The position numbers were made by a program, and so were the translations under genes. From Candidatus Rokuibacteriota bacterium (GTDB lineage Bacteria > Methylomirabilota > Methylomirabilia > Rokubacteriales > CSP1-6), in NCBI GenBank assembly GCA_003220435.1, contig QHSL01000070.1:5511-69510 (forward strand): DNA of 64,000 nt, written 5' to 3'. Within the stretch, counting starts at the first letter, position 1, and each line of letters starts with the position of its first letter. Positions 1,657-17,656 of this stretch are shown piece after piece. The notes under the pieces were generated by a model, which was not told the origin of the DNA, did not search any database, and worked only from the letters and a program-made list of their open reading frames with translations.

Positions 1657-2712
1657 ATGCCCGACGCGAGCCCGCCCCTGGTCAGCATCTGCGTTCCCAC
1701 TCGCAACGGGGCGCGCTATCTCCGGGAATGTCTCGAGAGCGCGCTCGCCCAGACCTTCGGGCAATTCGAGCTCCTGGTCGTGGACGACGCCTCGAGTGAC
1801 ACCACCGTCGCCGTCGCCACCGATTTCGCGCGCTCCGATGCGCGCGTCCGCGTCCATGAAAATCCCCAACGTCTCGGGCTCGTCGGCAACTGGAACCGGT
1901 GCGTCGAGCTGGCGCGTGGTGAATGGCTCAAGTTCTTGTTCCAGGACGATTGGCTGGATCGCCACTGTCTCACGCGCCTGCTGGATGCCCCCGTGCCCGG
2001 CGTTCTCCTCGTCGCGTGTCGTCGGGCGTCCTGGTTCGACTCGACGGTGCGCCCCCAATTGAGGGGCGACTACGAGCGGTACGTGGCGGAGCACAATCTG
2101 CCCCGGCGATTCCCGGGCCGGTCCATCATCGAGGCCGAGGCGTTCGCGGAGCACATGGTCGATTTTCCCCTCGACAACTGCATCGGTGAGCCCACCGCGA
2201 CCTTGATCCACGCCGACGCGTTCCGACGGTACGGGCTGTTTCACCCGCACCTCGTACAGCTGGGGGATTGGGAGCACGCGGCGCGCGTCGCGCTCCAGAA
2301 CGGCCTTTGCTACGTCGACGCTCCTCTGGTAACGTTCAGGCTGCATGGCGCATCGACCACGGCGGTCAGCTGGTCGGCGCGCAGCTACCGAAGAGACGTG
2401 ATCGATCCGCTCTTGATCCTTCATGAGGTCGTCTACGCGCCGACCTATCGGTCAGTCCGTGACGCTGCGGCGCGCCGCACGCCGCCGATCGAGTTGTCGC
2501 AGCGCCTGCACGAGGCGGTCGATCGCGCCCACGGCCGGGCGCGCGACGGTCGGGACCTCGCCGAATGGCGAGACGCCGTTCGAAATTATCCGCGGCTCCT
2601 GTCGGGGCCGCCCACGCACCGGCTCCGACGCTGGCTCAAACGCTCGGCTCCGACGTCGCTCCTGTCCCTGGGGCGGCGCGTACGGAAGCTCCGTCCGCGT
2701 CATCCCGACTGA
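1657..2712 (+). CDS. Glycosyltransferase family 2.
   Basis: Translation from ATG 1657 begins PLVSICVPTRNGARYLRECLESALAQTFGQFELLVVDDASSD, a typical GT2 N-terminus with a DxD region. TGA at 2710-2712. Divergent from the FdrA-like gene. Confidence 0.75.
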   Translation: MPDASPPLVSICVPTRNGARYLRECLESALAQTFGQFELLVVDDASSDTTVAVATDFARSDARVRVHENPQRLGLVGNWNRCVELARGEWLKFLFQDDWLDRHCLTRLLDAPVPGVLLVACRRASWFDSTVRPQLRGDYERYVAEHNLPRRFPGRSIIEAEAFAEHMVDFPLDNCIGEPTATLIHADAFRRYGLFHPHLVQLGDWEHAARVALQNGLCYVDAPLVTFRLHGASTTAVSWSARSYRRDVIDPLLILHEVVYAPTYRSVRDAAARRTPPIELSQRLHEAVDRAHGRARDGRDLAEWRDAVRNYPRLLSGPPTHRLRRWLKRSAPTSLLSLGRRVRKLRPRHPD

Positions 2713-2732
2713 GCGACGAGGCTGGACGGCCC

Positions 2733-4121
2733 GTGCTCTTCAATAGCCTGCGGTTCCTCTATGTCTTCCTCCCCATCACCTATGCAGGCTTCTGGCTGCT
2801 GCATCGCAAGACGCATCGCTACTTCTGGCTGGCGCTGACGGGATACCTCTTCTACGCTTCCTGGAACTACAAGTTCTGCGCCTTGATGGCGTTCTCCACC
2901 GCCGTCGCCTATCTGGCCGGCCACGGGCTGCTTCGATGGCAGGGCCCGCGTCTGCGCCTCCTGTGTCTCGTCGTGCCGGTCACGGCGGATCTGGCGCTCC
3001 TCGGGTTCTTCAAGTACTGGAATTTCGCGGTCGACAACGCCAACCACGCCACGGCGTGGCTGGGGATTCCCGCCGCGCTGCCCCTGTTCGACATCGTCTT
3101 GCCGGTCGGCATCTCCTTCTACACGTTTCACACCGTCACCTATATCGTCGACAGCTACCGGGGCCTGATCAAGCCGACCCGCAACGTCTTCGAGTTCGCC
3201 TGCTACGTCTCCCTGTTCGCTCAGCTGGTGGCCGGCCCGATCGTCCGATTCCGGCAGATCGAAGGGGACCTCGATCGCATCGACCGCGTCGATCGACGGA
3301 ACGCGCTGAACGTCGCGTGGTCGTTCTTCGCGATCGGGCTGGCCAAGAAGGTCCTGCTCGCCGACTCGATCGCCGCGATCGTCAATCCGGCGTTCCTCCG
3401 ATACGAGGACCTCGGGACCCTCGGCACGTGGGCGTGCATGCTCGGCTACACCTATCAGCTCTATTTCGATTTCTCGGGGTACAGCGACATGGCGGTCGGC
3501 CTCGGATACCTCTTCGGCCTGCGGCTGCCCCAAAACTTCAACTCGCCGTACAAGGCGCTCGACCCCGCTGACTTCTGGCGTCGCTGGCACATCTCGCTTT
3601 CGTCGTTCCTCCGGGACTACGTCTACATCCCGCTCGGCGGCAGCCGGTGCTCGCCCCTGGCCGCCAACCGCAACTTGCTCGTGACGATGCTGTTGGGTGG
3701 CCTGTGGCACGGCGCCAACTGGACGTTCGTCGTGTGGGGCGGTTATCACGGGGTCCTGCTGGTCCTCCATCGCCTCGTGCACGAGCCCTGGGACAGGCTC
3801 TCGCCCTTCGCCAGACGACTGACGACGTTCGTCCTGGTCGTCGTGGGCCTGGTCTTCTTTCGCGCCGGCGACTTCACGATGGCCGCGACGATGTTGCAGC
3901 GCATGTTCGTCTGGCACTCCGGGGCCGCGCCGGTCGGTGGCGAGACACTCGTCGTTCTCCTCGGCGTCGCGGCCGTGCTGGCCCACGTCGGCCCGAACAC
4001 GTTCGAGCTCGATCACGCGTGGTCGGCCCCCGCCGTCGCGGGGCTGGCCCTCTTGTTCGTGCTGTGTCTGGTCTCGATTGCCGGCTTCGAGGTCTCGCCG
4101 TTCCTCTACTTCCAGTTCTGA
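2733..4121 (+). CDS. MBOAT-family membrane-bound O-acyltransferase (AlgI/DltB-like polysaccharide O-acetyltransferase). A GTG start is proposed at 2733; the long ORF 2565-4121 overlaps the upstream gene.
   Basis: Multi-pass hydrophobic protein with MBOAT hallmarks (FYTFHTVTYIVDSYRG, LGGLWHGANWTFVVWG; conserved His). A GAGG lies 14 bp upstream of GTG 2733. Confidence 0.8.
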   Translation: MLFNSLRFLYVFLPITYAGFWLLHRKTHRYFWLALTGYLFYASWNYKFCALMAFSTAVAYLAGHGLLRWQGPRLRLLCLVVPVTADLALLGFFKYWNFAVDNANHATAWLGIPAALPLFDIVLPVGISFYTFHTVTYIVDSYRGLIKPTRNVFEFACYVSLFAQLVAGPIVRFRQIEGDLDRIDRVDRRNALNVAWSFFAIGLAKKVLLADSIAAIVNPAFLRYEDLGTLGTWACMLGYTYQLYFDFSGYSDMAVGLGYLFGLRLPQNFNSPYKALDPADFWRRWHISLSSFLRDYVYIPLGGSRCSPLAANRNLLVTMLLGGLWHGANWTFVVWGGYHGVLLVLHRLVHEPWDRLSPFARRLTTFVLVVVGLVFFRAGDFTMAATMLQRMFVWHSGAAPVGGETLVVLLGVAAVLAHVGPNTFELDHAWSAPAVAGLALLFVLCLVSIAGFEVSPFLYFQF

Positions 4122-4168
4122 GAGCTATTTCCCCTTCCCAGCGCACGGCCGTATGAGATAAAAGACGC

Positions 4169-5299
4169 ATGCGCTCGCGTCTCGCGGTCGGTTATCTCCT
4201 GCCGCGAATCCTCCTCGTGACCCTGATGATCGACGGCGGTCTTCGCTTTCTGCCGACGCGTCTGTTCACGTTCCGTCCCGAGATGCGATACCGGCTGCCC
4301 GGTGAGGCCTACGAAAGGAATGCGCACACCGTCAACGCCGTCGCCTACGGTGACCTGGCGGGGCTCGGCAATCTGCGCGACTTTCGGCAGTATCGCCCGG
4401 ACACGATGACCACCGATGGCTGGGGATTCCGCAATCTGCCATACCCCGGGCCGTTCTGCGCGATCCTGATCGGCGATTCGTTCGCGATCGGCGGCGTCGG
4501 TGTCGGCGACCGTGAAACGCTCTCGGCCCGGCTCCAGGAATTGTGGGACTGCGGCGTCTACAACGCCGCCGGCGCCACCGATCCGGCCCTGCAGGCGCCC
4601 CATGCGCAACGGGTCGCCTCGATGGCGCGGCGACTCGGTCTCGGCAAGGGTTTGGTGCTTGCGGAATTCGTGGAGCGGCTCCCGACGCCCACGATCCCAC
4701 CCCTCCCGCCGGCGTCCGCGGACGACGAGTCGAGCCCGCCGCCGCTCGCGCGTCGGCTCATGACGCTCGGGATGGGCTGGGCGAGCTTCTCCCCAGGGAA
4801 AATTCTGGCCCAGCGCGTGGGCAGCCGCCTCGAGAACGACACGGTGCTGCCGAACCGACACGCCAGGCGGGTGCCGCGAGCCACCCTCCGCGACGGGCAC
4901 TGGATGCTCTTCTTCGACGAAGAGATGGAGACGTACACGCCGGAGCGGCGCGTCTCGGCCGAGTATTGGATCTGGCTACGGCGGCAACTCGCGGAGGTGG
5001 ATCTGGAGCTCCTGGTCGTCCTGGTGCCGAACAAGTACACCGTCTACCACGATCTCCTCCGTGACGAGCCGCCGCAGGCGGTCGAGCCGGGAGAATCGCT
5101 CACGCGCCTGACGGCGCAATTGCGCGACGCCGGCGTCCCGGTGGTGAACGTCACCAGCGTCCTTCGCGCGGGCGCCGCGAGCGCCGTGGCCGAGGGGATC
5201 CACCTGTACTTTCAGGACGACACCCACTGGAACGCCCACGGCATCGACGTCGCCGCCCGCGCGGTGGCTCGTGCATGGCGCGAGGTTCTCGGGCCGTGA
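4169..5299 (+). CDS. AlgJ/AlgX-like SGNH-fold protein, the probable periplasmic partner of the MBOAT for polysaccharide O-acetylation.
   Basis: N-terminal TM anchor (LLPRILLVTLMIDGGL). GDSF block (ILIGDSFAIGG) and a C-terminal DTHWN motif (YFQDDTHWNAHG) typical of AlgJ/AlgX-type SGNH proteins. Directly downstream of the MBOAT gene. Confidence 0.7.
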   Translation: MRSRLAVGYLLPRILLVTLMIDGGLRFLPTRLFTFRPEMRYRLPGEAYERNAHTVNAVAYGDLAGLGNLRDFRQYRPDTMTTDGWGFRNLPYPGPFCAILIGDSFAIGGVGVGDRETLSARLQELWDCGVYNAAGATDPALQAPHAQRVASMARRLGLGKGLVLAEFVERLPTPTIPPLPPASADDESSPPPLARRLMTLGMGWASFSPGKILAQRVGSRLENDTVLPNRHARRVPRATLRDGHWMLFFDEEMETYTPERRVSAEYWIWLRRQLAEVDLELLVVLVPNKYTVYHDLLRDEPPQAVEPGESLTRLTAQLRDAGVPVVNVTSVLRAGAASAVAEGIHLYFQDDTHWNAHGIDVAARAVARAWREVLGP

Positions 5300-6291
5300 A
5301 CGCCACCCGACCCCAGGAAGTCCCGCCCAAAGTCAGCGTCGTGATGCTCACCTACCGGCACGAGAAGTTCATCACGCAGGCGATCGAGAGCGTCCTGATG
5401 CAGAAAACCGATTTCCCGTTCGAGCTGCTGATCGGTGAGGACAAGTCGCCCGACGCGACCCGTCGCATCGTCGAGGCATACGAGCGCCGTCACCCCGGCA
5501 AGATTCGACTGCTGGCGCGCGAGCAGAACCTGGGCATGATGCGCAACTTCGTCGACACGTATCTGCGCTGCCGCGGAACCTACGTCGCGCTCCTGGAAGG
5601 GGACGACTACTGGACCTGCGCGCAGAAGCTCCAGCTGCAGGCCGACGCGCTCGACGCCCACCCGGACTGGGTCATCTGCTTCCACACCGTGCGATTCGTG
5701 ACCGACGACGGCAGCCGGCCGTCGTATCTCTTCCCGAGCGGCCGGCCGGAAGTGTCTACGCTCGACGACCTCATGGAACAGAATTTCATGCAGACGTGCT
5801 CCCTCATGTTCCGCAACGGCGTCGTCCGGTCCTTTCCGGACTGGTACTTCTCACTGCCGGTCGGCGACTGGCCGCTCTCCATCATGTTGGCGCAGCACGG
5901 CCGGGTGGGCTACCTCGATCGGGTCATGGCCGACTATCGCATCCATCCCGGCGGCGTGTGGGCGGGCCGGGATCCCCGCTTCCAGCTCGAGCAGAGCTTG
6001 AGAATGCTGGGGCAAGTCCGCCAGATCCTGGATCCGGAGCGGGCCGCGCGGCTTGCCGCACGCATTGCGCGCGGCTACGTCGAGCTCGCCGGCCTCCACG
6101 CGGACGCCGGCGACCCGTCGAAGGCCCGCGCCGCGTTGTGGGGCCAGCGGCGCTTCGCGTCCGCGCTGCGCCGCGGGTTCCCGCACAAGCACGCCCTGCG
6201 GGAGGTGCTGCGGATCGAGGCCCCGATCATCCTCCGGGCACTCCAGTGGCTCCGGCGCCTCTCCCGTTCGCGCCGCGCGCGGAACCTTTGA
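5275..6291 (+). CDS. Glycosyltransferase family 2.
   Basis: KVSVVMLTYRHEKFITQAIESVLMQKTDFPFELLIGEDKSPD plus an EGDDYW (DxD-like) motif. Overlaps the AlgJ-like stop (alternative GTG start at 5296, 1 bp before that TGA). TGA at 6289-6291. Confidence 0.8.
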   Translation: MARGSRAVNATRPQEVPPKVSVVMLTYRHEKFITQAIESVLMQKTDFPFELLIGEDKSPDATRRIVEAYERRHPGKIRLLAREQNLGMMRNFVDTYLRCRGTYVALLEGDDYWTCAQKLQLQADALDAHPDWVICFHTVRFVTDDGSRPSYLFPSGRPEVSTLDDLMEQNFMQTCSLMFRNGVVRSFPDWYFSLPVGDWPLSIMLAQHGRVGYLDRVMADYRIHPGGVWAGRDPRFQLEQSLRMLGQVRQILDPERAARLAARIARGYVELAGLHADAGDPSKARAALWGQRRFASALRRGFPHKHALREVLRIEAPIILRALQWLRRLSRSRRARNL

Positions 6292-6308
6292 TCGCCGGCG
6301 GCGCCGGA

Positions 6309-7544
6309 CTACGGGTCCGGCATCGCCGCGCCCGGTCGCTCGCTCGCGCCCCTCTCGGCAAGCACCTGGCGCACGGCGGCGGCGCGGGCCAGGGCGGAGC
6401 GGATGATTCCGCAGACCGTTCCGACGATTTCCGGCGTAATGGCCTGGCCGGTGGGAAGCAGCAAGACGCGCGGCGCGACCCGTTCGGTGTGAGGCAGCAG
6501 CAACCCGGCGTTGGGCTGGAGTGACCGATAGGGCTCCATGCGGTGGCAGCCGGGCCAGAAGTACTTCCGGGCCAGCACGTTGTCCGCGTGCAACACCAAA
6601 ACCAGCTCGTCTCGACTCAGGGCCGCGACGTCCGGGTCCACCTCCACGACGACGTACTGATAGTTGTGGCGCTCGGCGTGGTCGTAGCCGATGAGGGAGA
6701 TGCCCGGCAGTCCCCACAACTCGGCCCGGTAGGCGTCGTAGTTCCGGCGGTTCACGCCGACCAGTTCGTCGATCGCGTCGAGGGACGTGAGGCCCATCGC
6801 CGCGCAGATCTCCGTCATCTTGCCGTTGGTGCCCAGGTAGATGACGCGATCGTAGCCGGCGAAGCCGAAGTTGCGCATGAGCCGCAGCTTGACCGCCAGC
6901 GCATCATCGCTGGTCACGACGGCGCCACCCTCGAAGCTGTTGAGGAACTTGGTCGCGTGGAAGCTGAACACCTCGCACGCGCCGAATCCGCCGATCATCC
7001 GGCCACGGTGAGAGCACCCCAGGGCGTGCGCCGCGTCGTACATCACGCGGAGACCCCGGCGGTCGGCGATCGCTTCGATGGCGGCGGTATCGCAGGGCCG
7101 GCCCCAGACGTGAACGCCGATCACGCCGGTCGTGCGCGGCGTGATGAGGCGCTCGATCGCGCCGGGGTCGATGGTGTGCGTGCGTGGATCGATGTCGGCG
7201 AACACCGGGGTGATCTCCTGCCGCTGCAGCGCGTGCGCCGTGGCCACGAACGTGTACGAGGGAACGATGACCTCGCCCCGCAGCTCCAGCGCCCGGATAG
7301 CGATCTCGAGGGCGACCGTCGCATTGCACATCGCGACACAGTGCTTGACGTCGGCAAGGTCGGCGATCCTCCGCTCGAGCTCCTTCACCAGCGGCCCGTC
7401 GTTCGTCAGCCATCGCCGGTCCAGCAGATCGCCGACGAGGGCGAGAAACTTCGCGCGATCTCCGATGTTCGGGCGCCCGACGTGGAGGTGCTCGGCGAAG
7501 GCTGGGACCCCGTCGAGAAGCGCAATCTGCTGATCTCGTCTCAT
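6309..7544 (-). CDS. DegT/DnrJ/EryC1/StrS-family PLP-dependent sugar aminotransferase.
   Basis: 411-aa ORF with a lysine-containing segment (SFHATKFLNSFEGGAVV) and the overall pattern of WecE/PglE-like nucleotide-sugar aminotransferases. Its start overlaps the upstream acetyltransferase stop (ATGA). Confidence 0.85.
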   Translation of the reverse strand: MRRDQQIALLDGVPAFAEHLHVGRPNIGDRAKFLALVGDLLDRRWLTNDGPLVKELERRIADLADVKHCVAMCNATVALEIAIRALELRGEVIVPSYTFVATAHALQRQEITPVFADIDPRTHTIDPGAIERLITPRTTGVIGVHVWGRPCDTAAIEAIADRRGLRVMYDAAHALGCSHRGRMIGGFGACEVFSFHATKFLNSFEGGAVVTSDDALAVKLRLMRNFGFAGYDRVIYLGTNGKMTEICAAMGLTSLDAIDELVGVNRRNYDAYRAELWGLPGISLIGYDHAERHNYQYVVVEVDPDVAALSRDELVLVLHADNVLARKYFWPGCHRMEPYRSLQPNAGLLLPHTERVAPRVLLLPTGQAITPEIVGTVCGIIRSALARAAAVRQVLAERGASERPGAAMPDP

Positions 7545-8152
7545 TCCTGGCCGACCTCGCGCAGCGCCTTGGGTATATAGCGACCCGACGCGTCGAACAG
7601 ATCACGGCGAAGCTGCGCCTCGAGCTCCAGGATCCGCTCTCGCGGCCGTTCCTTGAGCGGCCTCGCCGGCGAGCCCCCGTGGATCGTCCACGGCGCGCAG
7701 TCCCTGTTGACGAGTGAATTCGCCCCGATGGCCGCGCCCTCGCCGATCTCCACGCCGGGCAGGACCACCGAGTTCGCGCCGATGACCGCGTGTCGGCGGA
7801 TTCGCACGAACGAGCGGATCGCCACACGATAGGGCGCCGGCACCGTAGGGCCGGTGAGACACCCGCCCAGATAGTCGTCGTTGCCGGTGTAGACCCGCGC
7901 CCCGCCCGAGATCCCGACGAAGTCCTCCACGAAGAGCTCGCCGCCGCCGGCGATCGCCGCGTGGGCGGCGATGTGGACGAAGCTCCCGAGGGCAGTCAGA
8001 CGCCCACCCGAAAGAAACACGAAGTCATCGACGATCACCGAGTCACCGATCGAGATCACCTCGGGCCCGACGATCTTGGCGAGCGGCCAGATCATGACGT
8101 CCTGGCCGACGCGCGCGAAGGGCAGCGAATACGCCTGGCTGCGATCGCTCAT
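7541..8152 (-). CDS. Hexapeptide-repeat (left-handed beta-helix) sugar N-acetyltransferase (PglD/WbbJ-like).
   Basis: Repeated [LIV]G-x-x-x-x hexapeptide pattern (IGDSVIVDDFVFLSGG, IGANSVVLPGVEIGEGAAIGANSLV). Immediately upstream of the DegT gene; the classic aminotransferase plus N-acetyltransferase pair. Confidence 0.8.
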   Translation of the reverse strand: MSDRSQAYSLPFARVGQDVMIWPLAKIVGPEVISIGDSVIVDDFVFLSGGRLTALGSFVHIAAHAAIAGGGELFVEDFVGISGGARVYTGNDDYLGGCLTGPTVPAPYRVAIRSFVRIRRHAVIGANSVVLPGVEIGEGAAIGANSLVNRDCAPWTIHGGSPARPLKERPRERILELEAQLRRDLFDASGRYIPKALREVGQE

Positions 8153-8225
8153 CCGGGCCTCCGTGAGAACATCGGCTCCGGACCGTCCGGGGCCGCGTCG
8201 ACGGCGCGCGGTCGTTCCCGCGCGC

Positions 8226-9476
8226 TCAGAGAGGGGCGACGGTCCATGGCAATGGGGGCTGAACGACCCCGGGCTCCCGGCCCACCCAGGCCCGCGCGCG
8301 CGGCGCGGCGTCGACCACGGTGAATGACGCGATCGAGCCGTTCTCGTACACGACCTGGTTCTCGTTTTGAACGATCAAGAGTCGGAGGCTGTACGCTCCG
8401 CTGTTCAACAGGTTCGCCGGCAGCGAAAAGGAACCCCGATACAAGCCGGGCGGTCGCCGCTCGGGCGTACAGCCAGTGGTCAGCACGATGACCCCTTCGT
8501 CGTTCACCAGGACATAGGTGATGTGCAGGTGGAGCTCCGGCTTCAGCACCCAGAACTCGGTGGCCACCTCGATGGGACTGGTCATGGTGATCAAGCCGTC
8601 GGGGCGCCTCGCGGTGGATGCCACGCAGACCCGCCGGACCCGCAGCGCCTCGGTGCCCGGAGCCGCATCGGGCGCCGCCCAGTCGCTGGGCTGGTCGGAG
8701 CGGTACGCTTCGCGCAGGTAGTGGCTCACCACCGTCGAGGCCGGCCCTTCGGTCACGAGTCGGCCCTCCTGCAGCAGGATCGCGCGGTGGCAAAGACTCT
8801 GGACCGCCACCGTGTTGTGGCTCACGAACAGAACGGTCCGACCTCCGCGGGACACCTCGTTCATCTTACCCAGGCACTTCCGCTGAAACCGCGCATCGCC
8901 GACGGCCAGCACCTCGTCGACGACGAGGATCTCCGGCTCCAGATGGGCCGCAACGGCGAAGGCGAGACGGACGTACATGCCCGAGGAGTAACGCTTGACC
9001 GGCGTGTCGATAAACTCCTCGCACTCGGAAAACGCCACGATCTCGTCGAGCTTCCGCCGAATCTCCGACTTCGTCATCCCCAATATCGCGCCGTTGAGAA
9101 AGATGTTCTCCCGCCCGGTCAGCTCCGAGTGAAACCCGGTGCCGACCTCCAGCAGGCTCGCGACGCGCCCCCTCAGCGTGATCCGGCCGGACGTCGGCGC
9201 GGTCACCTGGGACAGGATCTTGAGCAACGTGCTCTTGCCCGCTCCGTTCCGACCGACGATGCCGAGCACCTCGCCCTCCCCGACGTCGAAGCTCACGTCG
9301 TGGAGCGCCCAGACGTGCTCGCCCATTCGGCGCGCGTGCTGCTCCTCGCCGATTCGGTAGGCCGGGTCCGGCCGTCCGCGCACCCTGGCCCACCACCGGT
9401 TGAGATCCTCGGCGAGCGTTCCGCTCCCGATCGTCCCGAGCCGGTAGGCCTTGCTGAGCCCTTCGACGGCGATCAT
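8226..9476 (-). CDS. wzt: Wzt: ABC transporter ATP-binding protein for polysaccharide export, with a C-terminal carbohydrate-binding extension.
   Basis: Walker A (GRNGAGKST), ABC signature (YSSGMYVRLAF) and Walker B (ILVVDE), followed by a ~150-aa non-ABC C-terminal domain as seen in O-antigen Wzt proteins. Confidence 0.9.
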   Translation of the reverse strand: MIAVEGLSKAYRLGTIGSGTLAEDLNRWWARVRGRPDPAYRIGEEQHARRMGEHVWALHDVSFDVGEGEVLGIVGRNGAGKSTLLKILSQVTAPTSGRITLRGRVASLLEVGTGFHSELTGRENIFLNGAILGMTKSEIRRKLDEIVAFSECEEFIDTPVKRYSSGMYVRLAFAVAAHLEPEILVVDEVLAVGDARFQRKCLGKMNEVSRGGRTVLFVSHNTVAVQSLCHRAILLQEGRLVTEGPASTVVSHYLREAYRSDQPSDWAAPDAAPGTEALRVRRVCVASTARRPDGLITMTSPIEVATEFWVLKPELHLHITYVLVNDEGVIVLTTGCTPERRPPGLYRGSFSLPANLLNSGAYSLRLLIVQNENQVVYENGSIASFTVVDAAPRARAWVGREPGVVQPPLPWTVAPL

Positions 9477-9489
9477 GCCGCGCCCGCCC

Positions 9490-10398
9490 CTAGACCGTGT
9501 CCATGAACGTGCGCTCGACGCGCGTGAACAGCATCAGGCCGACGGCGAGCAGCGCCAGCATCGCGCCGAAGCTGGCCAGGAGCTGCGTGAGGCTGGCGGA
9601 GCCGACGCCGAGAAAGCCGAGGCGGAAGCCCTCCATCACCGGCGTGAGCGGATTGAGCAGCAGCGCCCACCGGAGGCGCTCGGGCACCGCCGACAGGGGA
9701 TAGATGACCGGGGTGGCATACATCAGCAGCTGGACCCCAAACGTGATCAACTGCCCGAGGTCGCGGTAGCGGGTCGTCAGCGCGCACACGACGATGCCGC
9801 CGCCCAGGGCGTACCCCGCCAGCAACAGGAGAAACAGGGGCGTCAAGAGCGCCCATGCCGTCAGGCTCAGCGGCGCGCCGGAGACGACGTGGGCGCCGAG
9901 GAAGACGAGGAAAATGCCGAGCTGGATCGCGAAGGAGATCAGACTGGAGATGACCACGGAGATCGGAAGGACCAGACGATGAAAGTACACCTTCCCGAGC
10001 AGCCCGGCGTTCCACACGAACGTCCGGGCAGTGCTGGTCAGCGAGCCGGCGAAATAATTCCACAGCACAGTGCCCGCCAGGTAGAAAAGGAACGGCGGCG
10101 CCCCGTCGGTCGGCAGCGCCGCCAGCGTGCCGAAGACGATCGTGAACGTGAGGGTCGTGAGCAGCGGTTGAACGACGTGCCACGCGGGCCCCAGGATCGT
10201 CTGCTTGTACATCGATACGAAATCACGCCAGACGAACAGGCTGATCAGGTCCCGATAGCGCCACAGCTGGCCCAGGCGCCAATCGAACCAGCCGCGGTGA
10301 GGCGAAATGACCGTGGCGGCGCCCGCGGCGCGTTGCCCCTCACCGCGCGCACGCAGGGTCCCGCCCCTCTGGCGACTGTCCGCGACCACGTTCACCAC
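9490..10398 (-). CDS. wzm: Wzm: ABC-2-type polysaccharide export permease.
   Basis: Six-TM hydrophobic protein with a WRYRDLISLFVWRDF N-terminal motif typical of Wzm/KpsM/TagG permeases. Directly upstream of wzt. Confidence 0.85.
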   Translation of the reverse strand: MVNVVADSRQRGGTLRARGEGQRAAGAATVISPHRGWFDWRLGQLWRYRDLISLFVWRDFVSMYKQTILGPAWHVVQPLLTTLTFTIVFGTLAALPTDGAPPFLFYLAGTVLWNYFAGSLTSTARTFVWNAGLLGKVYFHRLVLPISVVISSLISFAIQLGIFLVFLGAHVVSGAPLSLTAWALLTPLFLLLLAGYALGGGIVVCALTTRYRDLGQLITFGVQLLMYATPVIYPLSAVPERLRWALLLNPLTPVMEGFRLGFLGVGSASLTQLLASFGAMLALLAVGLMLFTRVERTFMDTV

Positions 10399-10613
10399 AG
10401 ACGGATCATCACGAAGCCGCGCTGCTGGAGCTCGTCGTAGACGTCACGCCGCTCGCGCCGCGCCGGGCCGCTCGCGGCGCCGGGATCCGCGCCCGGCGGA
10501 GCGATGCGACGGTCCAGCAGCACCTTGATGTCGGGCATGCCCGCGAAGACGGTCTCGAAATAACTGAGCAGATCGGGGCGGTCACGCGCGACCACGACGA
10601 TGACCCGCAGCAT
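10392..10613 (-). CDS. Small hypothetical protein (73 aa), possibly translationally coupled to wzm; paralogue of the 10781-11047 ORF.
   Basis: ATG 10613 is preceded on the minus strand by a GGGGGAG Shine-Dalgarno 4 nt upstream. Its stop overlaps the wzm start by 7 bp. Shares the motif pattern hhhVxRxDxxLxxYhxxxFxxxxxhxVhLDRRxxxxG...RRxhxxELxxxGFVhhxL with the divergent neighbour. Confidence 0.45.
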   Translation of the reverse strand: MLRVIVVVARDRPDLLSYFETVFAGMPDIKVLLDRRIAPPGADPGAASGPARRERRDVYDELQQRGFVMIRLW

Positions 10614-10700
10614 CAGTCTCCCCCGTCAGAAAACTTTCCAATTGGACCGTGGCCCTTGCGGGATCCACGAGAAAGCACGGAGTTTCAACATCTTCTGAAA

Positions 10701-10715
10701 TGGCACCGCATATGC
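10701..10715 (+). promoter_or_regulatory. Candidate sigma-54 (-24/-12) promoter: TGGCAC-N5-ATGC.
   Basis: aaaTGGCACcgcatATGCTcg has a perfect -24 TGGCAC, exact 5-nt spacer and the GC of the -12 element. The predicted start site is ~55 nt upstream of ATG 10781. Confidence 0.3.
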
Positions 10716-10780
10716 TCGTGTCCGATTCAATGCGTCCAGCAAGCACGGAACCTCACGTTCGACGGCTGCTCGAGGGCCAC

Positions 10781-11047
10781 ATGGCTCGGCATCTGTTCCT
10801 CGTCTCGCGCCACGATGCTCGTCTCTATGAGTATCTGGTCGATCGGTTTCGGGACGATAGAAACGTCGAAGTCATCCTCGATCGCCGTCACATCGAGCGC
10901 CGGGGCCGAACGCACCCGCCCGCGTACGTAGGCGGCGATCGCCGGCGCGGCGACCGCCGGACTCGGCGCGAGCTCGACCTGGAGCTCAAGGTCCGGTCTC
11001 ACGTGATCCTGACGATCCCCGACGCCGACACCCCTCCCCATTTATAG
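10781..11047 (+). CDS. Small hypothetical protein (88 aa from ATG 10781; ORF opens at 10649/10700), paralogue of 10392-10613.
   Basis: HLFLVSRHDARLYEYLVDRFRDDRNVEVILDRRHIERRG and RRELDLELKVRSHVILTIP parallel the motif order of the divergent small ORF. A GAGGG sits 4 nt before ATG 10781. TAG at 11045-11047. Confidence 0.4.
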   Translation: MARHLFLVSRHDARLYEYLVDRFRDDRNVEVILDRRHIERRGRTHPPAYVGGDRRRGDRRTRRELDLELKVRSHVILTIPDADTPPHL

Positions 11048-11048
11048 C

Positions 11049-11226: not shown

Positions 11227-14200
11227 CTAGGACGCGCCGAGCTCGCGCAGCACACGGCGCGCCTCGACGGCATCGGTAGATTTCTCGTCCAGCTGGAGCG
11301 AGCGCCTCAGCGACACGATCGCATCCTCTTTCTTCCCGAGCTGGTAGTAGGTCATCCCCAGGTGATGGTGGACCGGCGCGATCCGCGCGCCGAGCTCGGC
11401 CGCCCGCTTGAGGATCGGCTCCGCCTTCGCGTACTCCCCGCGCTGGTAGTACACGAAGCCGACGGTGTCGAGGACCGACGCGGAATTGGGCGCGGCCTCC
11501 TGCGCGCTCAGCGCCAGCGTCAGCGCTTCCGCGAGGTTCTGGGTCCGCGACGCGTAGATCCACGCGAGGTTGTTGAGCACCGCCGCATCCTTTGGATTCA
11601 GGCTCTGCGCCTTCCGATAGGAGGCGATCGCCCGGTCGACCTCGCCCTTCCGCTCGTAGGCGTTCCCGAGCAAGAAGTGGGCGGGCGCGTGACCGGGCTG
11701 CAGGGCGACCACGGTGCTCAGCGCGTCGGTCGCCGGCTGGAGATTGCCGCGCTGGAGCTGGAGCTGGCCGATGATGTAGTGCGCCGCCGCCAGCTTGGGC
11801 TGGCGGGCGACCGCGTCCTTCGCGAGCGCCAGCGCTTCGTCGAACCGTCCGGCCTGCGCTTTCAGGCTGGCCAGCCGTAGCTTCAGGTCCACGTTGGGCG
11901 GGCTCACCCGGTGGGCCGTGTCGAGGTGCTGGATCGCCGCCTCGACGTTGCCCTTGCGCTGGTGGTAATCGCCGAGCAGCAGGTTCGCCTGGAGATTCTC
12001 AGGCTCCGAGCGCACGACCGCCTTGAGGTAGTCGGCCGCCTCCTCCGCCTTCTTGTCGTGAAGACGCAGCAGGCCCATCGCGAGGTTGGCCGGAACGAAC
12101 GTCGGCGCGACCTCGAGGATCCGCCGGTACTCGGCTTCGGCTTCCGCTCGCTGGCTCCGGGCCAGGTACGCCCGCGCCAGCGCGTTGCGGACGGCGACGT
12201 TGCTCCCATCCTTCTCGAGCGCGGTCTTGAGCTCGCCGATCTGCTCGACCAGCAGCGCATCGTCTGGCTTCTGGCCCGACAGCGCCGCCATCTCGATCCG
12301 GATCCCCTTGGTGTCGGGCGCGAGCTCGAGGGCCTTTTGGTACGATCGCCGCGCGCCGTCCAGGTCGCCCCGCGCGAGCAGCGCGCGCGCGCGGTAGTAG
12401 TGGCCCGCCGCGATGTTCGGATTGATCTGGTTCACCTGATCGAACTGCGTGATCGCCTCTGCGGTGTTGTACTTGCCGAGGTAGGCGAGGCCGAGGAGGA
12501 TCCGCGGCTGCACGGAGCCTGGATCGCCGGAGACCACGGGCGAGAGCAAGCTCACCGCGTCGTCGTATCGGGCTCGCTTGATATAGAGGTGGCTCAGCGC
12601 CAGGGTCAGCTCGCGCGCTGGGGGCGTGGCCTTGATCGCCGGCTCGAGGACCGCGATCGCCTGGTCGAACCGGACGTGCGCGGCGTGAACGCTCGCCAGT
12701 GTGAGCGCGGCGGCGACGTCGGCCGGCCGATCAGTCAGGATCCGCTGGAGCTGCGCGACCGCTTCACCCTCGCGCTTCCCGGTTAGCAGCAGCCGGGCCA
12801 GGGCGAAGCGCGCGGGCGCGAACCGCTCGTCGACTGCGATCGCGCGCTTGAGCTCCTCCTCGGCCTTCTTCTGGTCACCCTTCTTGTCGTGGAGCGCGGC
12901 CAGCGTCAGGATCAGCTCGGGGTTCTTCGGGTCGGCCTTCAGCGTGGCCTGCAGCGCGGCAAGCGCCTCGTCGGTCCGGTTCTGCTGGACGAGCGTGGCG
13001 ACCTTCGCCCGCAGCGCGGGCACGTATTTCGGGTTCGCCCGGAGCGCCGTCTCGTATTCCCGGAGCGCATCCTGGGGCTTCTTCTCGCTGTTGTAGACGT
13101 TTCCGAGCGCCAGCCGCCCGGGCGCGAAGCTCGGATCGACCTCGACCGCCCTCGCGTACATGTCCTCGGCGCGCTTGAGGTCGCCGCGGGCGACGTAGAT
13201 CGCCCCGAGCACTCCGTAGGGCTGCGCGCTCTGGGGCATGAGCCCGGTGGCGGTCTGGGCCGACTTCACCGCCCGGTCGAAATCTCCGAGCCGGAGATGC
13301 GCCCGAGCCACTTGCAGATGGTACTCGCCGACCTTCTCCATCGGCCTGGTGATCGCGTCGAACTCGCGAAGCGCCTCGCGCGCGCGACCACCGGCCAGGT
13401 AGGCGCCTCCCAGGCCGTAGCGGAAGAGGGGGTTGTCGGGGGCTCGCGCCACGATCGCCTGAAATTCGACGACCGCATCGTCGACCCGGTTGAGCCCAAC
13501 GAAGGCGTGCGCGAGCAAGTAGCGCACGACCGGCGTGTCCGGCAACGACCGGGCGAGCGGCCGCAGGGCCAGGATCGCCTTCTCGTACTCCTGGGCCCGG
13601 ACGTAGTACCCCCCCAGGACGACCACGACGCGCGGCGACCATGCCTGACGCGGCAGGGTTTCAAGATCCTTGATCGCGTCAAGGAGCCGGCCGTCCACGG
13701 CGTGGAGCTCGCTGGACGCCAGGGCGACTTTCGGGCTCTGCGGAGCCACCACCTTCGCCTGATTCACGACTTCGCGGGCGGCATCGCGCTGGCCCTGACG
13801 CAGCAGCAGCCCGGCGAGCCCGATCAGTGCGTCGGGATATTTCGGCCTCTCGACGAGTGCGTCGCGATAGGCCTTCTCGGCCTCCGCCAGGCGCCCGAGG
13901 ATCGCGAGGGAGTCGCCTAGAGCCCGCTGGACCTCAGGCGTCCCGGGACCGCGCGCGAGAGCCTTCGACAGTAGCGCCGCCGCCTGCTGGGCGTCTCCCT
14001 GGCCGTTGAGCACGGCCCCCCTCACGTAGAGCTCCGCCGCGCTCTCGGGAGCCTTCGCCCGGATCGCGTCGGCCTGCTCCAGCGCCGCGTTCCATCCCTC
14101 GAGGTCGAGGTACGACTGCGCCAGGTCGGCGCGCGCCTCGAGATTGTCGGGCTGCAACTCGACTGCCCGCTGGAACTCCCGCATGGCGTCGACGTTCCAG

Positions 14201-14427
14201 GACTTGGCGCGATACGCGCGGCCCATCGCGTGGAGAGCGGGCGCGAATTTCGGATCGATCTGGAGAGCGTTTTTCAGCTGAAGGATCGCCTCGTTGTACT
14301 TGCCTTCGGTGTGGTACTTGATCCCCCGCTCCAGATATTGCTGCTTCTTCACGTTCGGGTCCTGAGTGCAGGCCCCGAGCATCAGCGCGCACAGCAAGCA
14401 CACCTGGAGACGGCGGCGCGTCCTCAT
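11227..14427 (-). CDS. prsT: PEP-CTERM-system TPR-repeat lipoprotein (PrsT-like), ~1067 aa.
   Basis: Start trimmed to ATG 14427 (MRTRRRLQVCLLCALMLGACTQ: signal peptide plus lipobox LGAC), with a GAGAGGA Shine-Dalgarno 6 nt upstream. The entire protein is tandem TPR repeats (AxxxYxxAxxxxP pattern), as in the TIGR02917-type protein found with exosortase A loci. Confidence 0.88.
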   Translation of the reverse strand: MRTRRRLQVCLLCALMLGACTQDPNVKKQQYLERGIKYHTEGKYNEAILQLKNALQIDPKFAPALHAMGRAYRAKSWNVDAMREFQRAVELQPDNLEARADLAQSYLDLEGWNAALEQADAIRAKAPESAAELYVRGAVLNGQGDAQQAAALLSKALARGPGTPEVQRALGDSLAILGRLAEAEKAYRDALVERPKYPDALIGLAGLLLRQGQRDAAREVVNQAKVVAPQSPKVALASSELHAVDGRLLDAIKDLETLPRQAWSPRVVVVLGGYYVRAQEYEKAILALRPLARSLPDTPVVRYLLAHAFVGLNRVDDAVVEFQAIVARAPDNPLFRYGLGGAYLAGGRAREALREFDAITRPMEKVGEYHLQVARAHLRLGDFDRAVKSAQTATGLMPQSAQPYGVLGAIYVARGDLKRAEDMYARAVEVDPSFAPGRLALGNVYNSEKKPQDALREYETALRANPKYVPALRAKVATLVQQNRTDEALAALQATLKADPKNPELILTLAALHDKKGDQKKAEEELKRAIAVDERFAPARFALARLLLTGKREGEAVAQLQRILTDRPADVAAALTLASVHAAHVRFDQAIAVLEPAIKATPPARELTLALSHLYIKRARYDDAVSLLSPVVSGDPGSVQPRILLGLAYLGKYNTAEAITQFDQVNQINPNIAAGHYYRARALLARGDLDGARRSYQKALELAPDTKGIRIEMAALSGQKPDDALLVEQIGELKTALEKDGSNVAVRNALARAYLARSQRAEAEAEYRRILEVAPTFVPANLAMGLLRLHDKKAEEAADYLKAVVRSEPENLQANLLLGDYHQRKGNVEAAIQHLDTAHRVSPPNVDLKLRLASLKAQAGRFDEALALAKDAVARQPKLAAAHYIIGQLQLQRGNLQPATDALSTVVALQPGHAPAHFLLGNAYERKGEVDRAIASYRKAQSLNPKDAAVLNNLAWIYASRTQNLAEALTLALSAQEAAPNSASVLDTVGFVYYQRGEYAKAEPILKRAAELGARIAPVHHHLGMTYYQLGKKEDAIVSLRRSLQLDEKSTDAVEARRVLRELGAS

Positions 14428-14484: not shown

Positions 14485-14756
14485 GCCTAGCACCTTCCTT
14501 CTCGGTTTCCGGTCGGAACTCTTTCTTCAGGTGTTCAACATCTGATCAGCGAGGTGGACAGTGGAGGAGTGATGTCAATTATTTGATTCAGTGCACTTTT
14601 TACCACGTCGGCCCCGGCAGTGACCGAGAACCGTGGCAAAATCCCGGCCATACGCCGACGCCACGCAAATGCTGCCACGCCGCAAAATATGCAAGGGAAC
14701 CGAAGGGTTGGGAAGCGCAGTTCCCTTTGGTACTCGCCTTGCTCGATCCTCAGCTC

Positions 14757-16163
14757 GTGAACCAGAGCTCTCTCGTCTCGCTAGTCGTGGATCCCGAGCC
14801 ATCCTCCGCGCAAACGCTGGCGGAGATGCTCGGCCAGATCGGTTGTCAGGTGCTCAGGACCGCGACCGGGGCCGAGGCGCTCGAGCGGTTTCACTCGGCG
14901 CTGCCCTCGCTGATCTTGCTCGACCTCGACATCGCCGACATTCCGGGCCGCCATCTGCTCCGCCACTTCCGCAGCTATGCGGAGCAGACGCCGATCATCG
15001 CTCTGGCGCGTCGAGTCGACGTCCGGATCGCCGTCGAGGTCGTGCGCGCCGGCGCGACCGAAGTCGTCGAGAAGGGAATCAGCCGGGACAACCTTCGCCT
15101 CGTCCTCAAAAAGGTGCTGCCGGCGGCGATCGCGACTGGACGCCGGGAGGCCCCCGACCGGGCCCGGGTCCTCTTCTTCTCGCGGTACGAGGGGCTCTTC
15201 CGGCGCAGCGAGCGGATGAAAGCCGTGGAGACGCTCGTGGTGCGCGTCGCCGACACCGACGGGCCCGTCCTGATCCAGGGCGAGCCGGGCACCGGCAAGG
15301 AGCTGGTGGCGCAGGCCATCCACCACCTTTCCAGCCGATCGGGCAAGGCCTGGCAGCGAGTGAACTGCGCTTCGCTGCCGGGCGACCTGCTCGAGTCCGA
15401 GATCTTCGGCTACGAGGGTGAGGCGCCAGCGAACATGCCGGTCCGCCAGCCCGGGAAGCTCGACCTCGCCGACGGCGGCACGCTGCTGCTCGACGAGATC
15501 GGGGACCTTCCACCGGTCCTCCAGGCGCGGATCGTCCATCTGCTGCAGGACGGTCAGTTCTTCCGCGCCCGGGGACGCGAGCTGATCAGCACCGGCGTTC
15601 GCCTGCTCGCAACCACCGTCAAGGACCTCAAGGCCATGGCGATGGCCCACGCGTTCAGCGAGGATCTGTCTCGCTTGCTCGGCGTCGTCAACATCGTGGT
15701 CCCGCCCTTGCGGGAGCGACGCGAGGAGATCCCGCTCCTGGCCGACCATTTCCGCGTCCGGTTCGCCGGCGAGTTCAACCGACCGCAGCCGAAGCTCTCG
15801 AGCGAAATTCTGGAATTGCTCTCCGCCTACGACTGGCCGGGCAACGTCCGCGAGCTCGAAAGCCTCGTGAAGCGGTGGATCGTCCTCGGCGACGACTCGC
15901 ACGTGAAGGAAGATCTCCAGTCGCGGTTGCGGGCGAGAGGGGCGAACGGCAAGCCGAGGCCCCCGTCGGCCGACGACGTCGGTCTCCGAGAGGTCGGGCG
16001 CCGAGCGGCCCGAGCGGCCGAGCAGGCGGCGTTGCACGAGGCGCTGGCGCGCGTGGGCGGCAACCGCGCGGCGGCGGCCCGTCTGCTCAAGATCAGCTAC
16101 AAGACGCTGCTGCAGAAGCTGAACGCGGGAAAGCGCGCCAAACGCCTCGGCGGGCACGGGTGA
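14757..16163 (+). CDS. Sigma-54-dependent response regulator (REC + AAA+ sigma-54 activator + Fis-type HTH). Start uncertain: GTG 14757 proposed; the ORF opens at 14478.
   Basis: REC-like N-terminus (SLVVDPE...LILLDLDIADIPG), then GEPGTGKE Walker A, GAFTGA-like ESEIFGYEGEAP loop, R-finger region and C-terminal HTH (GGNRAAAARLLKISYKTL). Divergent from prsT. Confidence 0.75.
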   Translation: MNQSSLVSLVVDPEPSSAQTLAEMLGQIGCQVLRTATGAEALERFHSALPSLILLDLDIADIPGRHLLRHFRSYAEQTPIIALARRVDVRIAVEVVRAGATEVVEKGISRDNLRLVLKKVLPAAIATGRREAPDRARVLFFSRYEGLFRRSERMKAVETLVVRVADTDGPVLIQGEPGTGKELVAQAIHHLSSRSGKAWQRVNCASLPGDLLESEIFGYEGEAPANMPVRQPGKLDLADGGTLLLDEIGDLPPVLQARIVHLLQDGQFFRARGRELISTGVRLLATTVKDLKAMAMAHAFSEDLSRLLGVVNIVVPPLRERREEIPLLADHFRVRFAGEFNRPQPKLSSEILELLSAYDWPGNVRELESLVKRWIVLGDDSHVKEDLQSRLRARGANGKPRPPSADDVGLREVGRRAARAAEQAALHEALARVGGNRAAAARLLKISYKTLLQKLNAGKRAKRLGGHG

Positions 16164-16255
16164 TGGGGGCCCAGCCGGGTCGGGATGTCCGGGCGAACAG
16201 CCTCTTGATTGGAACGCGGCGCCCTGTCAATATCGTAGGGCTGCGGAGGGCAGCT

Positions 16256-17656
16256 GTGCACGTCACCATCGTCGACGAAACCATGACCGTAGGTGAAGCC
16301 GCCCATCGAGTGCTGTTCTCGATGGGCGTGAAGACGACGTTCGCGGGCTCGCTACACGAGCTGCCGCTCGTGCTCGAGGCGAGCGGCGTGCCGGACCTCG
16401 TGATCGTGAATGTGACCAACGACGTGACGGGCTGGGAGGTCGCGGCCCGGACGCAGCGCGCCGGCTATCAGGGCCGGCTGCTCGCGTTCGTCGACGGGCT
16501 CGACGATCCGCGGACGCGCTACCTGACGCAGCTGCCGAGGGTCGAGTGCGTGGTGCGGCCAAGCTCGCACGCCCTGCTCGAGGACATCGTGAGAAAGGCC
16601 GTTCCGGAGCCGGCGCTGACCCCGGCGCGATCGCTGCCTCCGCTGCCCGCGTCCGCCTATCACGGCATCATCGGCCACTCGCCCCAGATGCATGACATCT
16701 TCTCTCGCATCGACAAGGTGGCGTCCGGCGACGTGAACGTTTGCATCCACGGCGAGAGCGGCACCGGCAAGGAGCTGATCGCGCGGGCGATCCACTACGC
16801 GAGCCCCCGTCGCGACCGTCCCCTCATTACGCTCGATTGCACCACGATCCCGGACGGGCTGATGGAGAGCCACCTCTTCGGGCACGTCAAGGGCGCCTTC
16901 ACCGGGGCGACGGAGCATCGCGAAGGTGTCTTCGCGCTGGCCCACACGGGGACGCTGTTCATCGACGAGCTGGGCGAGCTGAGCCCGCGCCTGCAGGCCA
17001 AACTGCTGCGTGTCATCCAAACGCGCGAGTTCTCGAAGGTGGGCGGGTCCAAGTCCCTCCGGACCGACATCCGGCTCATCACGGCGACGAACAAGGACCT
17101 CAAGACGGCCGTTGCGCAGGGCACGTTCCGCGAGGACCTCTACTACCGCGTGGCGGTCTTCATGATCAAGGTTCCAGCGCTGCGCGAGCGGACCGAGGAC
17201 ATCTCGCTTCTTGTCGAGCATTTCCTCCAGCGGTTCGCCACGCTCTACGGGAAGCCGATCACGAAGGTGGCGCCGTCGACGCTCGAGCGCATGACGTTGC
17301 TGCCGTGGCCCGGCAACGTCCGGCAGCTGGAGAATTTCCTGGAGCAGGCCGTCGTCCTCGCCGAGGGCGACACGCTCACCGACCGGGATCTTTTCGCCGG
17401 AGACTTCGCGAGTGCCGCCGTCAGCGCCACGGCCAACCCAGCGCTGTCGGGACAGTTCGAGCCGGGCCTACCCCTCAGCGAGGTGGAGCGGCGCCACATC
17501 CTTCGCACGCTGCAGAAGGTCCACGGCAACCGCACCGAGGCAGCCCGGCTCCTCCAGATCAGCGTGCGCTGTCTGCAGTACAAGCTGAAGGCCTACGGCC
17601 GGGAGGTCAGCGCGGCGCCCGGGTCCAGCCGGAGTCTCGTCCCCAGCACCTCCTAA
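16256..17656 (+). CDS. Second sigma-54 enhancer-binding protein with a degenerate receiver-like N-terminus. GTG 16256 proposed, with GGAGGG 5 nt upstream; an alternative ATG 16163 overlaps the upstream stop.
   Basis: GESGTGKE Walker A, GAFTGA motif (HVKGAFTGA), a sigma-54 interaction domain and a C-terminal HTH (HGNRTEAARLLQISVRCLQ). The N-terminal domain has N in place of the phospho-acceptor Asp (DLVIVNVTNDVTGWE). Confidence 0.8.
   Translation: MHVTIVDETMTVGEAAHRVLFSMGVKTTFAGSLHELPLVLEASGVPDLVIVNVTNDVTGWEVAARTQRAGYQGRLLAFVDGLDDPRTRYLTQLPRVECVVRPSSHALLEDIVRKAVPEPALTPARSLPPLPASAYHGIIGHSPQMHDIFSRIDKVASGDVNVCIHGESGTGKELIARAIHYASPRRDRPLITLDCTTIPDGLMESHLFGHVKGAFTGATEHREGVFALAHTGTLFIDELGELSPRLQAKLLRVIQTREFSKVGGSKSLRTDIRLITATNKDLKTAVAQGTFREDLYYRVAVFMIKVPALRERTEDISLLVEHFLQRFATLYGKPITKVAPSTLERMTLLPWPGNVRQLENFLEQAVVLAEGDTLTDRDLFAGDFASAAVSATANPALSGQFEPGLPLSEVERRHILRTLQKVHGNRTEAARLLQISVRCLQYKLKAYGREVSAAPGSSRSLVPSTS

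Follow-up and report, generated by a model that had tools for sequence, protein, structure and literature searches.

Two divergent small basic proteins in a Rokubacterial genome represent a widespread unannotated family with a predicted link to sigma-54 control

What two small basic proteins of no recognised family do at the head of a polysaccharide exporter operon, and whether they belong to the exporter at all, is the question raised by a 64,000-nt stretch of DNA (the window) from Candidatus Rokuibacteriota bacterium (assembly GCA_003220435.1, contig QHSL01000070.1, positions 5,511 to 69,510). In this window, gene A (10392..10613, minus strand) and gene B (10781..11047, plus strand) diverge from each other, and an initial annotation had proposed that the pair heads the wzm–wzt operon and forms a candidate small-protein family tied to polysaccharide export and sigma-54 control. 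Database searches place the proteins in a widespread family, and comparison with related loci suggests that B is probably transcribed from a sigma-54 promoter and that the exporter is a local neighbour of A. As for the operon, the proposal holds for A, whereas B is monocistronic in the window and points the other way, so that only A heads the wzm–wzt genes.

Both open reading frames (ORFs) were recovered where they had been placed. Gene A, read from ATG 10613–10611, encodes a basic protein of 73 aa (isoelectric point, pI, 9.7) that scores 81 bits against the family hidden Markov model and carries the signature VVVARDRP...LDRR...RRD.YDEL..RGFV.IRL of an A-type member. The product of gene B is very basic (88 aa, pI 10.6, 19 Arg) and shows the B-type signature MARHLFLVSR...VEVILDRR.GERR...DRRR.DRR.RRE.DLEL..RSHVILT. 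The strong Shine-Dalgarno sequence noticed earlier for A reads GGGGGAG on the minus strand (10618..10624), 4 nt ahead of the ATG, at a site where 74 aligned spacers show the block CCcCGTCG conserved to at least 90%. Gene B also possesses such a signal, which the initial annotation did not mention: GAGGG at 10772..10776 (plus strand), again 4 nt ahead of the ATG at 10781 and kept as GAGGG, GGGGG or GGGGA in the 12 sequences of the window's clade.

Gene callers differ on the start of B. An alternative in-frame ATG at 10730 would give a protein of 105 aa; it lies about 4 nt from the predicted transcription start, and the added stretch shows no codon periodicity in the window's clade. This start is possible but not favoured over 10781. 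A GTG at 10649 was rejected as the start because of its position upstream of the sigma-54 promoter. In the majority clade (L010–L016-type loci; L numbers denote loci of the comparative set), B apparently begins 14 codons earlier, at MTCHAQCRQTIDKP-MARHLF, 42 nt upstream, with its own Shine-Dalgarno sequence GAGGA and codon-position entropies of 0.50/0.68/0.95 that become flat further upstream. Neither this earlier ATG nor such periodicity is present in the window's clade.

A database search returned 146 homologs of A (71–99% identity) and 139 of B (60–100% identity), all unnamed or called "hypothetical". Against 23–25 orthologous loci, the ratio of nonsynonymous to synonymous substitution rates (dN/dS) is 0.11–0.33 for A and 0.08–0.35 for B, with dS up to saturation, and neighbouring genes give comparable values (AllF 0.20–0.36, wzm 0.21–0.23). 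On these values, which fall in the range of the neighbouring enzymes, A and B are protein-coding and under constraint; the suggestion that both ORFs should be conserved in related genomes under purifying selection is thus borne out. The motif said to be shared by the two proteins is weak in a pairwise alignment (30% identity over 77 columns, E 0.009) and significant at the profile level, where hhalign aligns the two family profiles over their full length with a probability of 96.3% (E 1.6e-9). An A-type/B-type divergent pair also occurs in a distant metagenome-assembled genome (MAG, locus L030), so the duplication is old and not a recent DNA copy; a recent DNA duplication was rejected on the 30% identity and the presence of both types in the distant MAG. 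The alignments identify A and B as ancient paralogs, and they are the sole family members within the window, whose G+C content is 0.65–0.75.

To gauge the extent of the family, 1.84 billion representative proteins were searched with a profile built from A-type and B-type sequences. At least 1,894 clusters (50% identity) were obtained at E ≤1e-3, mostly of proteins 70–110 aa long, with 252 at E ≤1e-10; the median length among 148 newly returned sequences is 89 aa. The earlier statement that no family is recognisable is upheld for A, B and their relatives. Neither protein matches any family of Pfam-A 2025 at E up to 10, and in NCBIfam 20.0 the sole line is an adenylate kinase model at E 0.1 (12 bits vs a cut-off of 160). 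PHROGs v4 and PADLOC 2.0 gave zero matches for A and B, the 112 diverse members described below likewise found no family in NCBIfam, PHROGs or PADLOC, and a toxin–antitoxin or defence-system reading found no support. In a Pfam scan of 112 diverse members, no family matched more than two of them (best E 0.009), and the PDB yielded no sequence-profile match for the family, nor did fold searches produce a convincing match. No helix-turn-helix, ribbon-helix-helix or other known DNA-binding fold was found in A or B, and the response-regulator receiver model PF00072 matched neither these proteins nor the 112 members. A tblastn search of 72,556 plasmids of cultured organisms with a generic member gave no match and so did not confirm that such proteins are common in cultured proteobacteria. 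On the sequence searches, A and B represent a widespread and genuinely unannotated small-protein family.

Conservation over the 112 diverse members (B numbering) shows that R36 is invariant and that V8, L15, F23, V31, D34, R35, R59, R60 and L69 are at least 90% conserved, the signature running strand 1, helix 1, strand 2, DRR, variable loop, RR, helix 2, strand 3. AlphaFold, run twice on B, returned the same topology, with a strand at 3–8, a helix at 10–22, a strand at 29–33, a disordered segment at 38–54, a helix at about 56/63–72 and a strand at 74–79 (predicted local distance difference test scores of 69–72 overall and 85–93 in the N-terminal half). Each protein would, according to the model, form a three-stranded alpha/beta mini-domain. 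The loop is arginine-rich in B and Pro/Gly/Ala-rich in A. The domain also occurs in larger proteins (P numbers): two or three copies are found in P0280, P0247, P0242, P0244, P0260 and P0344, it lies C-terminal to TPR modules in P0302, P0367, P0368, P0380 and P0388, and it stands ahead of a receiver domain in P0363, other members having coiled-coil-like tails.

The sigma-54-like promoter that had been proposed before the plus-strand gene was then assessed against a definition of GG at −24 and GC at −12, exactly 10 nt apart, close to TGGCAC-N5-TTGCW. The site TGGCACCGCATATGCT (TGGCAC-N5-ATGCT, 10701..10716, plus strand) has its GG at 10702–10703 and its GC at 10714–10715, with the GG-N10-GC spacing and one mismatch to the consensus, and it is the sole exact match to TGGCAY-N5-WTGCW in the 64 kb, where 0.08 would be expected. 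A transcription start of B near 10727 is predicted from it. The motif is confirmed by its conservation at a fixed distance: GG-N10-GC is present in 80 of 81 distinct A–B spacers and TGG[CT]A[CT]-N5-NNGC in 79 of them, L089 having CGGCAC-N5-TTGCT and L004 one change in the −12 GC. The motif begins 82–83 nt ahead of the B start in 59 spacers, 80–85 nt in small groups, 38–41 nt in a small sub-clade, and 143 nt where a repeat element is inserted. TGGCA and ATGCT are invariant in 14 loci, and no other non-coding columns are as well conserved.

Upstream of the −24 element, inverted repeats are conserved at distances of about 25 and 70 bp. The nearer one, just upstream of the promoter, is a GAAAG-N6-GTTTCAA block (10671..10688; GaAAg...tTTCaa, identity 0.7–0.99), and the farther one, recognised from its conserved columns in the A leader about 70 bp upstream of −24, is the palindrome GAAAACTTTC (10629..10638, consensus GGAA-N4-TTCC), a candidate activator-binding site or translational operator. 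A minus-strand sigma-54 motif for A, TGGAAAG-N-...GA, was rejected, as it has no −12 GC and lies too near the ATG. No Rfam model matched within 10300–11400, and nothing was found in the literature on Rokubacteria and sigma-54.

The arrangement of the two genes was followed in a comparative set of 114 loci, some redundant contigs included. The window, which is part of an uncultured soil Rokubacteria genome, has its closest public relatives among MAGs named Candidatus Rokuibacteriota / Methylomirabilota. Gene B is divergent from A in 103 of the 103 Rokubacteria/Methylomirabilota loci with room upstream of A, the two being 118–232 bp apart, and in most loci a sigma-54 activator gene lies downstream of B on the same strand. 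The window has two such genes. Activator 1 (14757..16163, plus strand; start uncertain, the ORF opening at 14478) combines a receiver, an AAA+ core and HTH_8 (PF00072, PF00158, PF25601, PF02954). Activator 2 (16160..17656, plus strand, approximate start) matches only AAA+ sigma-54 core models in NCBIfam, is extended by about 165 aa at its N terminus, and is the ortholog of the activator after B in most related loci, being 69–85% identical to it in L001, L005, L008 and L010–L020, best in the AAA+ core. In several genomes little or nothing precedes the AAA+ core in the activator encoded after B (the whole protein has at most 392 aa in L001). About 400 bp over the receiver of activator 1 (14769–15168) are missing from the otherwise collinear L007 (11802–11804), and the receiver domain of activator 1 is variably present. 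A second sigma-54 promoter-like site, TGGTAC-N5-TTGCT (14728..14743, plus strand), precedes the first activator gene, and TGGTAY-N5-TTGCT occurs once each in 76 related loci, the majority of those with enough sequence, ahead of the first activator gene, suggesting that the activator gene is itself sigma-54 dependent.

The same association recurs at a greater distance. In the Methylomirabilota MAG that carries L030 (1459–6462; the same in L031), four family members lie within 4 kb among three activators, including an A-like/B-like divergent pair; TGGCAC-N5-AAGCT stands 97 nt ahead of the B-like gene, and one of the activators has 344 aa with its AAA+ core starting at about residue 20. In a relative 53% identical to B, the layout runs from B through a 1069-aa gene on the opposite strand to two activators in succession.

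The other side of the pair varies. In the window, A is followed by wzm (9490..10398, minus strand), an ATP-binding cassette (ABC)-2 permease (PF01061, E 1.7e-20; NCBIfam Wzm/RfbD below cut-off), and wzt (8226..9476, minus strand), the exporter ABC ATPase (PF00005; NCBIfam Wzt/TagH-type below cut-off). The reported overlap of the A stop with the wzm start is correct: the TGA of A (10394–10392) lies inside GTGGTGA (10398–10392), in which wzm starts with the GTG at 10398, so that the two frames overlap by 7 nt. The overlap is kept in L024–L027, whose wzm is 82% identical; in L080 and L082, whose wzm is only 42% identical, the gene again starts inside the A stop, as ATGGTGA in L080. Translational coupling between A and wzm is plausible within this sub-clade.

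The two exporter genes belong to a polysaccharide cassette of 8.8 kb (1603..10388; blastn against L007, Pfam) that lies between AllF and A and encodes a GT2 glycosyltransferase, an MBOAT protein, an AlgX-like protein, a second GT2 enzyme, a DegT aminotransferase, a hexapeptide acetyltransferase, Wzt and Wzm. The G+C content of the cassette is 0.64–0.70 vs 0.75 for AllF. By blastn, window positions 1–1602 and 10389–11039 are collinear with L007 5877–7473 and 7605–8259, and L007, whose A is 90% identical, has about 130 bp directly after the A stop where the window has 8.8 kb. The cassette is missing at this position in L007 and 90 other loci. The gene after A is AllF in 90 of the 99 readable loci, followed by AllG and a molybdenum/xanthine-dehydrogenase-like hydroxylase, and wzm in 9, all of which belong to a PrsT-bearing sub-clade; L076 (A at 603–821, 540 nt downstream) is the sole locus with enough sequence in which neither was detected. 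The AllF gene of the window (FdrA-like, 108..1550, minus strand) is 77.5% identical by tblastn to that of L001, for which HMA_AllF_N, CoA_binding and Ligase_CoA are on record as Pfam families. A perfect TATAAT lies at 1588–1593 on the minus strand, about 38 nt upstream of the AllF GTG (1550), within a stretch, GGCTATAATGCGACGA, that is conserved in L007, L083, L098, L101 and L103; AllF thus probably has its own sigma-70-type promoter in the sub-clade and need not be co-transcribed with A.

In L007 (7473–7609), and likewise in L083 and L098, a wzm relic of roughly 100 bp lies between A and AllF. The overlapping start GTGGTGA is part of the relic, whose reading VVTAASKHEA-DRELFWGLARRDLKVRDTQAA corresponds to codons 1–10 of the L080-type Wzm (MVSAASRQEA...RELFWVLAQRDLKVRYKQAA) joined to a segment from further on. 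The relic was read directly in these three loci, is shorter in L101, and the same A–AllF gap of 183–188 nt is present in L084, L085 and L099. The relic shows that the cassette was lost in those lineages, and A is intact in the L007-type relatives, at 89–90% identity, despite the loss. Judging from these alignments, the cassette entered behind A at the base of the sub-clade; it later diverged or was exchanged for another, and some lines lost it, with A intact throughout. The exporter link is, on this synteny, real but local, a property of the insertion site and not of the family, and the proposed family link to polysaccharide export does not hold, as AllF predominates behind A and distant members stand in unrelated contexts.

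On the B side, the window continues with a PrsT-type TPR lipoprotein gene (11227..14427, minus strand; TIGR02917, 470 bits vs a cut-off of 312), convergent with B. A TPR gene adjoins B only where A is about 89% identical or more, plus L089 and L107, and PrsT is confined to the sub-clade in which wzm follows A. The suggested co-localisation with PEP-CTERM or wzm loci across genomes is consequently not general, most genomes with A and B having no adjacent PrsT. The likely true start of PrsT (ATG near 14427) opens with MRTRRRLQVCLLCALMLGAC, a lipoprotein-like signal, and TGGCAT-N5-TTGCC lies about 40 nt upstream of it (14468–14483, minus strand), a candidate third sigma-54 promoter; TGGCAY-N5-TTGCC occurs in 5 loci in all (the window, L007 and three others). 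Downstream of the activators, 19643–39358 holds a large exopolysaccharide locus with a Bac_transf priming transferase, a Wza-like Poly_export/SLBB protein, a CofD-like protein and several GT2/GT4 glycosyltransferases, as well as a DUF362 protein and a methyltransferase/GNAT fusion. In other genomes, too, the activator is followed by a CofD-like gene, and in one of them by a polysaccharide-deacetylase gene as well; a looser association of the A/B module with envelope-polysaccharide genes is possible. Right after B (11049–11220), a 60-bp GC-rich unit with the core GGCGGGGCCCCAGCCCCGC is repeated in 2.8 tandem copies with 95% matches. Single copies of this element lie between genes in other Rokubacteria loci, namely L002 (4839–4857), L004 (1458–1476), L010 (4007–4025) and L015 (7952–7970), where it is an insertion in the A–B spacer. 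The element looks like a dispersed repetitive extragenic palindromic (REP)- or miniature inverted-repeat transposable element (MITE)-like repeat.

We favour a reading in which A and B are paired dimeric small regulators in a sigma-54 activator circuit, and regard it, taken whole, as somewhat better than an even proposition. In this mechanism, sigma-54 RNA polymerase would transcribe B from about 10727, the neighbouring activator turning B on. The conserved arginines (R10, D34-R35-R36 and R59-R60 in B numbering) would, in the modelled fold, lie close together along the C-terminal edge of the sheet and contact an anionic partner, which may be a nucleic acid, a ligand of the nucleotide type or an acidic patch on the activator. 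Dimers, either A/B heterodimers or homodimers, would be the working form of the domains, because the A–B pairing is strict and multi-domain fusions occur naturally. B, with A, would then act back on either the activator or the control region that the two genes share, and so tune sigma-54-dependent transcription, and the polysaccharide cassette would merely borrow the transcription and translation signals of A. The fusions after TPR modules and with a receiver domain are counted in favour of a signalling role. Several points weigh against this reading. The promoter of B, its transcription start and its dependence on the activator are predictions from sequence, the arginine clustering is derived from the topology of the model rather than from measured distances, and a scan of the spacer for sigma-70 promoters found no site for A. 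The distant members L021, L032 and L114 have no nearby activator or strict sigma-54 motif, and for this reason the sigma-54 link may be limited to the Methylomirabilota branch.

The locus itself invites a different account, in which the exporter Wzm–Wzt has in A, and perhaps in B, its own accessory subunit or chaperone, made in stoichiometric amounts with Wzm through translational coupling. The 7-nt overlap kept with two types of wzm agrees with such a role, as do the exopolysaccharide locus and PrsT that border the B side in the window. However, the co-occurrence with wzm–wzt expected of an accessory component was found in 9 of the 99 readable loci, all in one sub-clade, as against 90 with AllF; the L007-type relatives lost the cassette and kept A intact, L030 has an A-like gene without an exporter, and none stands beside the distant members whose loci were read (the profile search itself gives no genomic context). 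Synteny largely refutes this account, which we consider very improbable. The view that the ORFs are non-functional, their conservation stemming from overlapping regulatory DNA or RNA or from a recent DNA duplication, can point to a GC-rich genome with many spurious ORFs and to the disputed start of B; yet the dN/dS of 0.08–0.35 with synonymous divergence up to saturation, a family of at least 1,894 clusters at 50% identity, the 30% identity of A and B with both types present in a different lineage, and the absence of an Rfam match leave it with hardly any probability.

Two further accounts keep a regulatory role and assign it a different target. A and B may be sequence-specific DNA-binding autoregulators that sit as dimers on the GAAA/TTTC repeats of the spacer and control both divergent promoters, independently of the activator or in competition with it. 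Both proteins are basic, the spacer holds conserved palindromic blocks, and the divergent arrangement is typical of autoregulated regulator genes; the C-terminal fusions after TPR modules are also suggestive, since MalT/LuxR-type regulators carry their DNA-binding domain at the C-terminal end. However, no known DNA-binding fold was found, one of the conserved blocks is the ribosome-binding region of A and may be kept for translation, and the HTH_8 of the activator is the expected reader of upstream sites, so that this account seems unlikely. Alternatively, the domain may sense a phosphorylated or nucleotide ligand, such as a cyclic dinucleotide, (p)ppGpp or polyphosphate, as a small receptor that signals to the activator and so ties it to exopolysaccharide and catabolic genes. 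The conserved D-R-R and R-R follow strand 2 and precede helix 2, and Rossmann-like and flavodoxin-like folds bind phosphates at that edge of the sheet; members are fused to signalling modules, and cyclic di-GMP commonly acts on exopolysaccharide loci and sigma-54 activators. Against this stand the lack of detectable similarity to PilZ, MshEN, I-site or any known receptor and the position of the B arginines, partly in a loop modelled as disordered; we judge a receptor of this kind distinctly unlikely.

The preferred reading, that of paired regulators in a sigma-54 activator circuit, has parallels among known systems. Sigma-54 activators without a sensory domain are controlled by trans-acting partners, as PspF is by PspA and HrpS by HrpV/HrpG. 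Here, too, a sigma-54 activator has the gene of a small protein as its neighbour, that gene is preceded by a predicted sigma-54 promoter of its own, the activators after B are nearly devoid of an N-terminal regulatory domain in L030 and L001, and the A/B layout would give a feedback loop. In contrast to PspA and HrpV, to which A and B show no sequence or fold similarity, the locus has two paralogs instead of one partner, and in the window activator 2 has its extension of about 165 aa and activator 1 its receiver domain.

The PEP-CTERM/PrsK–PrsR–PrsT regulon includes sigma-54-dependent single-gene units (Haft et al. 2006, PMC1569441). B in the window resembles such a unit in being monocistronic, with a −24/−12 promoter and a long upstream region, and in lying near a PrsT-type lipoprotein gene, sigma-54 response regulators and exopolysaccharide genes. 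However, B has no signal peptide, PEP motif or C-terminal transmembrane helix; a test for the TIGR02595 class found no hydrophobic segment at either end and no NCBIfam match. Activator 1 scores 274 bits vs the PrsR cut-off of 503, and in most genomes with A and B no PrsT adjoins the pair.

With regard to the fold, alternating strands and helices, charged residues right after the strands and signalling contexts recall CheY-like and flavodoxin-like proteins, a parallel sheet being deduced from topology. The family domain differs in its size of about 70 residues, with two helices and only three strands, and from CheY-like proteins also in the absence of a PF00072 match and in an arginine cluster in place of the acidic phospho-acceptor pocket. 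The top matches of the fold searches, thioredoxin-like and KaiB-type proteins, share a small alpha/beta sandwich that opens strand-helix-strand. The disordered linker of B, RR.(I/G)ERR...DRRR.DRR.RR, is arginine-rich like the arginine-rich-motif RNA-binding peptides of lambda N and HIV Tat/Rev, but its motif is embedded in a folded domain with no Rfam element nearby, and the linker is not family-defining, because A has a Pro/Gly/Ala-rich linker instead.

The novelty of the locus lies in the protein family, since the surrounding logic of a sigma-54 promoter and an activator is classical. Beside that family, the locus illustrates how a module is reused, in that a cassette arrived, later diverged or gave way to another, and disappeared again, each time precisely after the A stop codon. 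The link of the family to sigma-54 control in Methylomirabilota is solid at the level of conserved motifs and gene order. More tentatively, and with a good deal of doubt, A and B may stand for a new widespread class of dimeric arginine-cluster regulators, acting in trans and possibly ligand-responsive, that serve sigma-54 activator circuits as modulators or co-factors of the activators, the pair being a two-component switch that would couple a sigma-54 feedback loop to any operon placed behind A. Sigma-54 activators without sensory domains need trans partners, few of which are known, and B is a concrete candidate for one. The family signature is clear enough that a Pfam-type model built on it could name thousands of "hypothetical proteins" in soil metagenomes.

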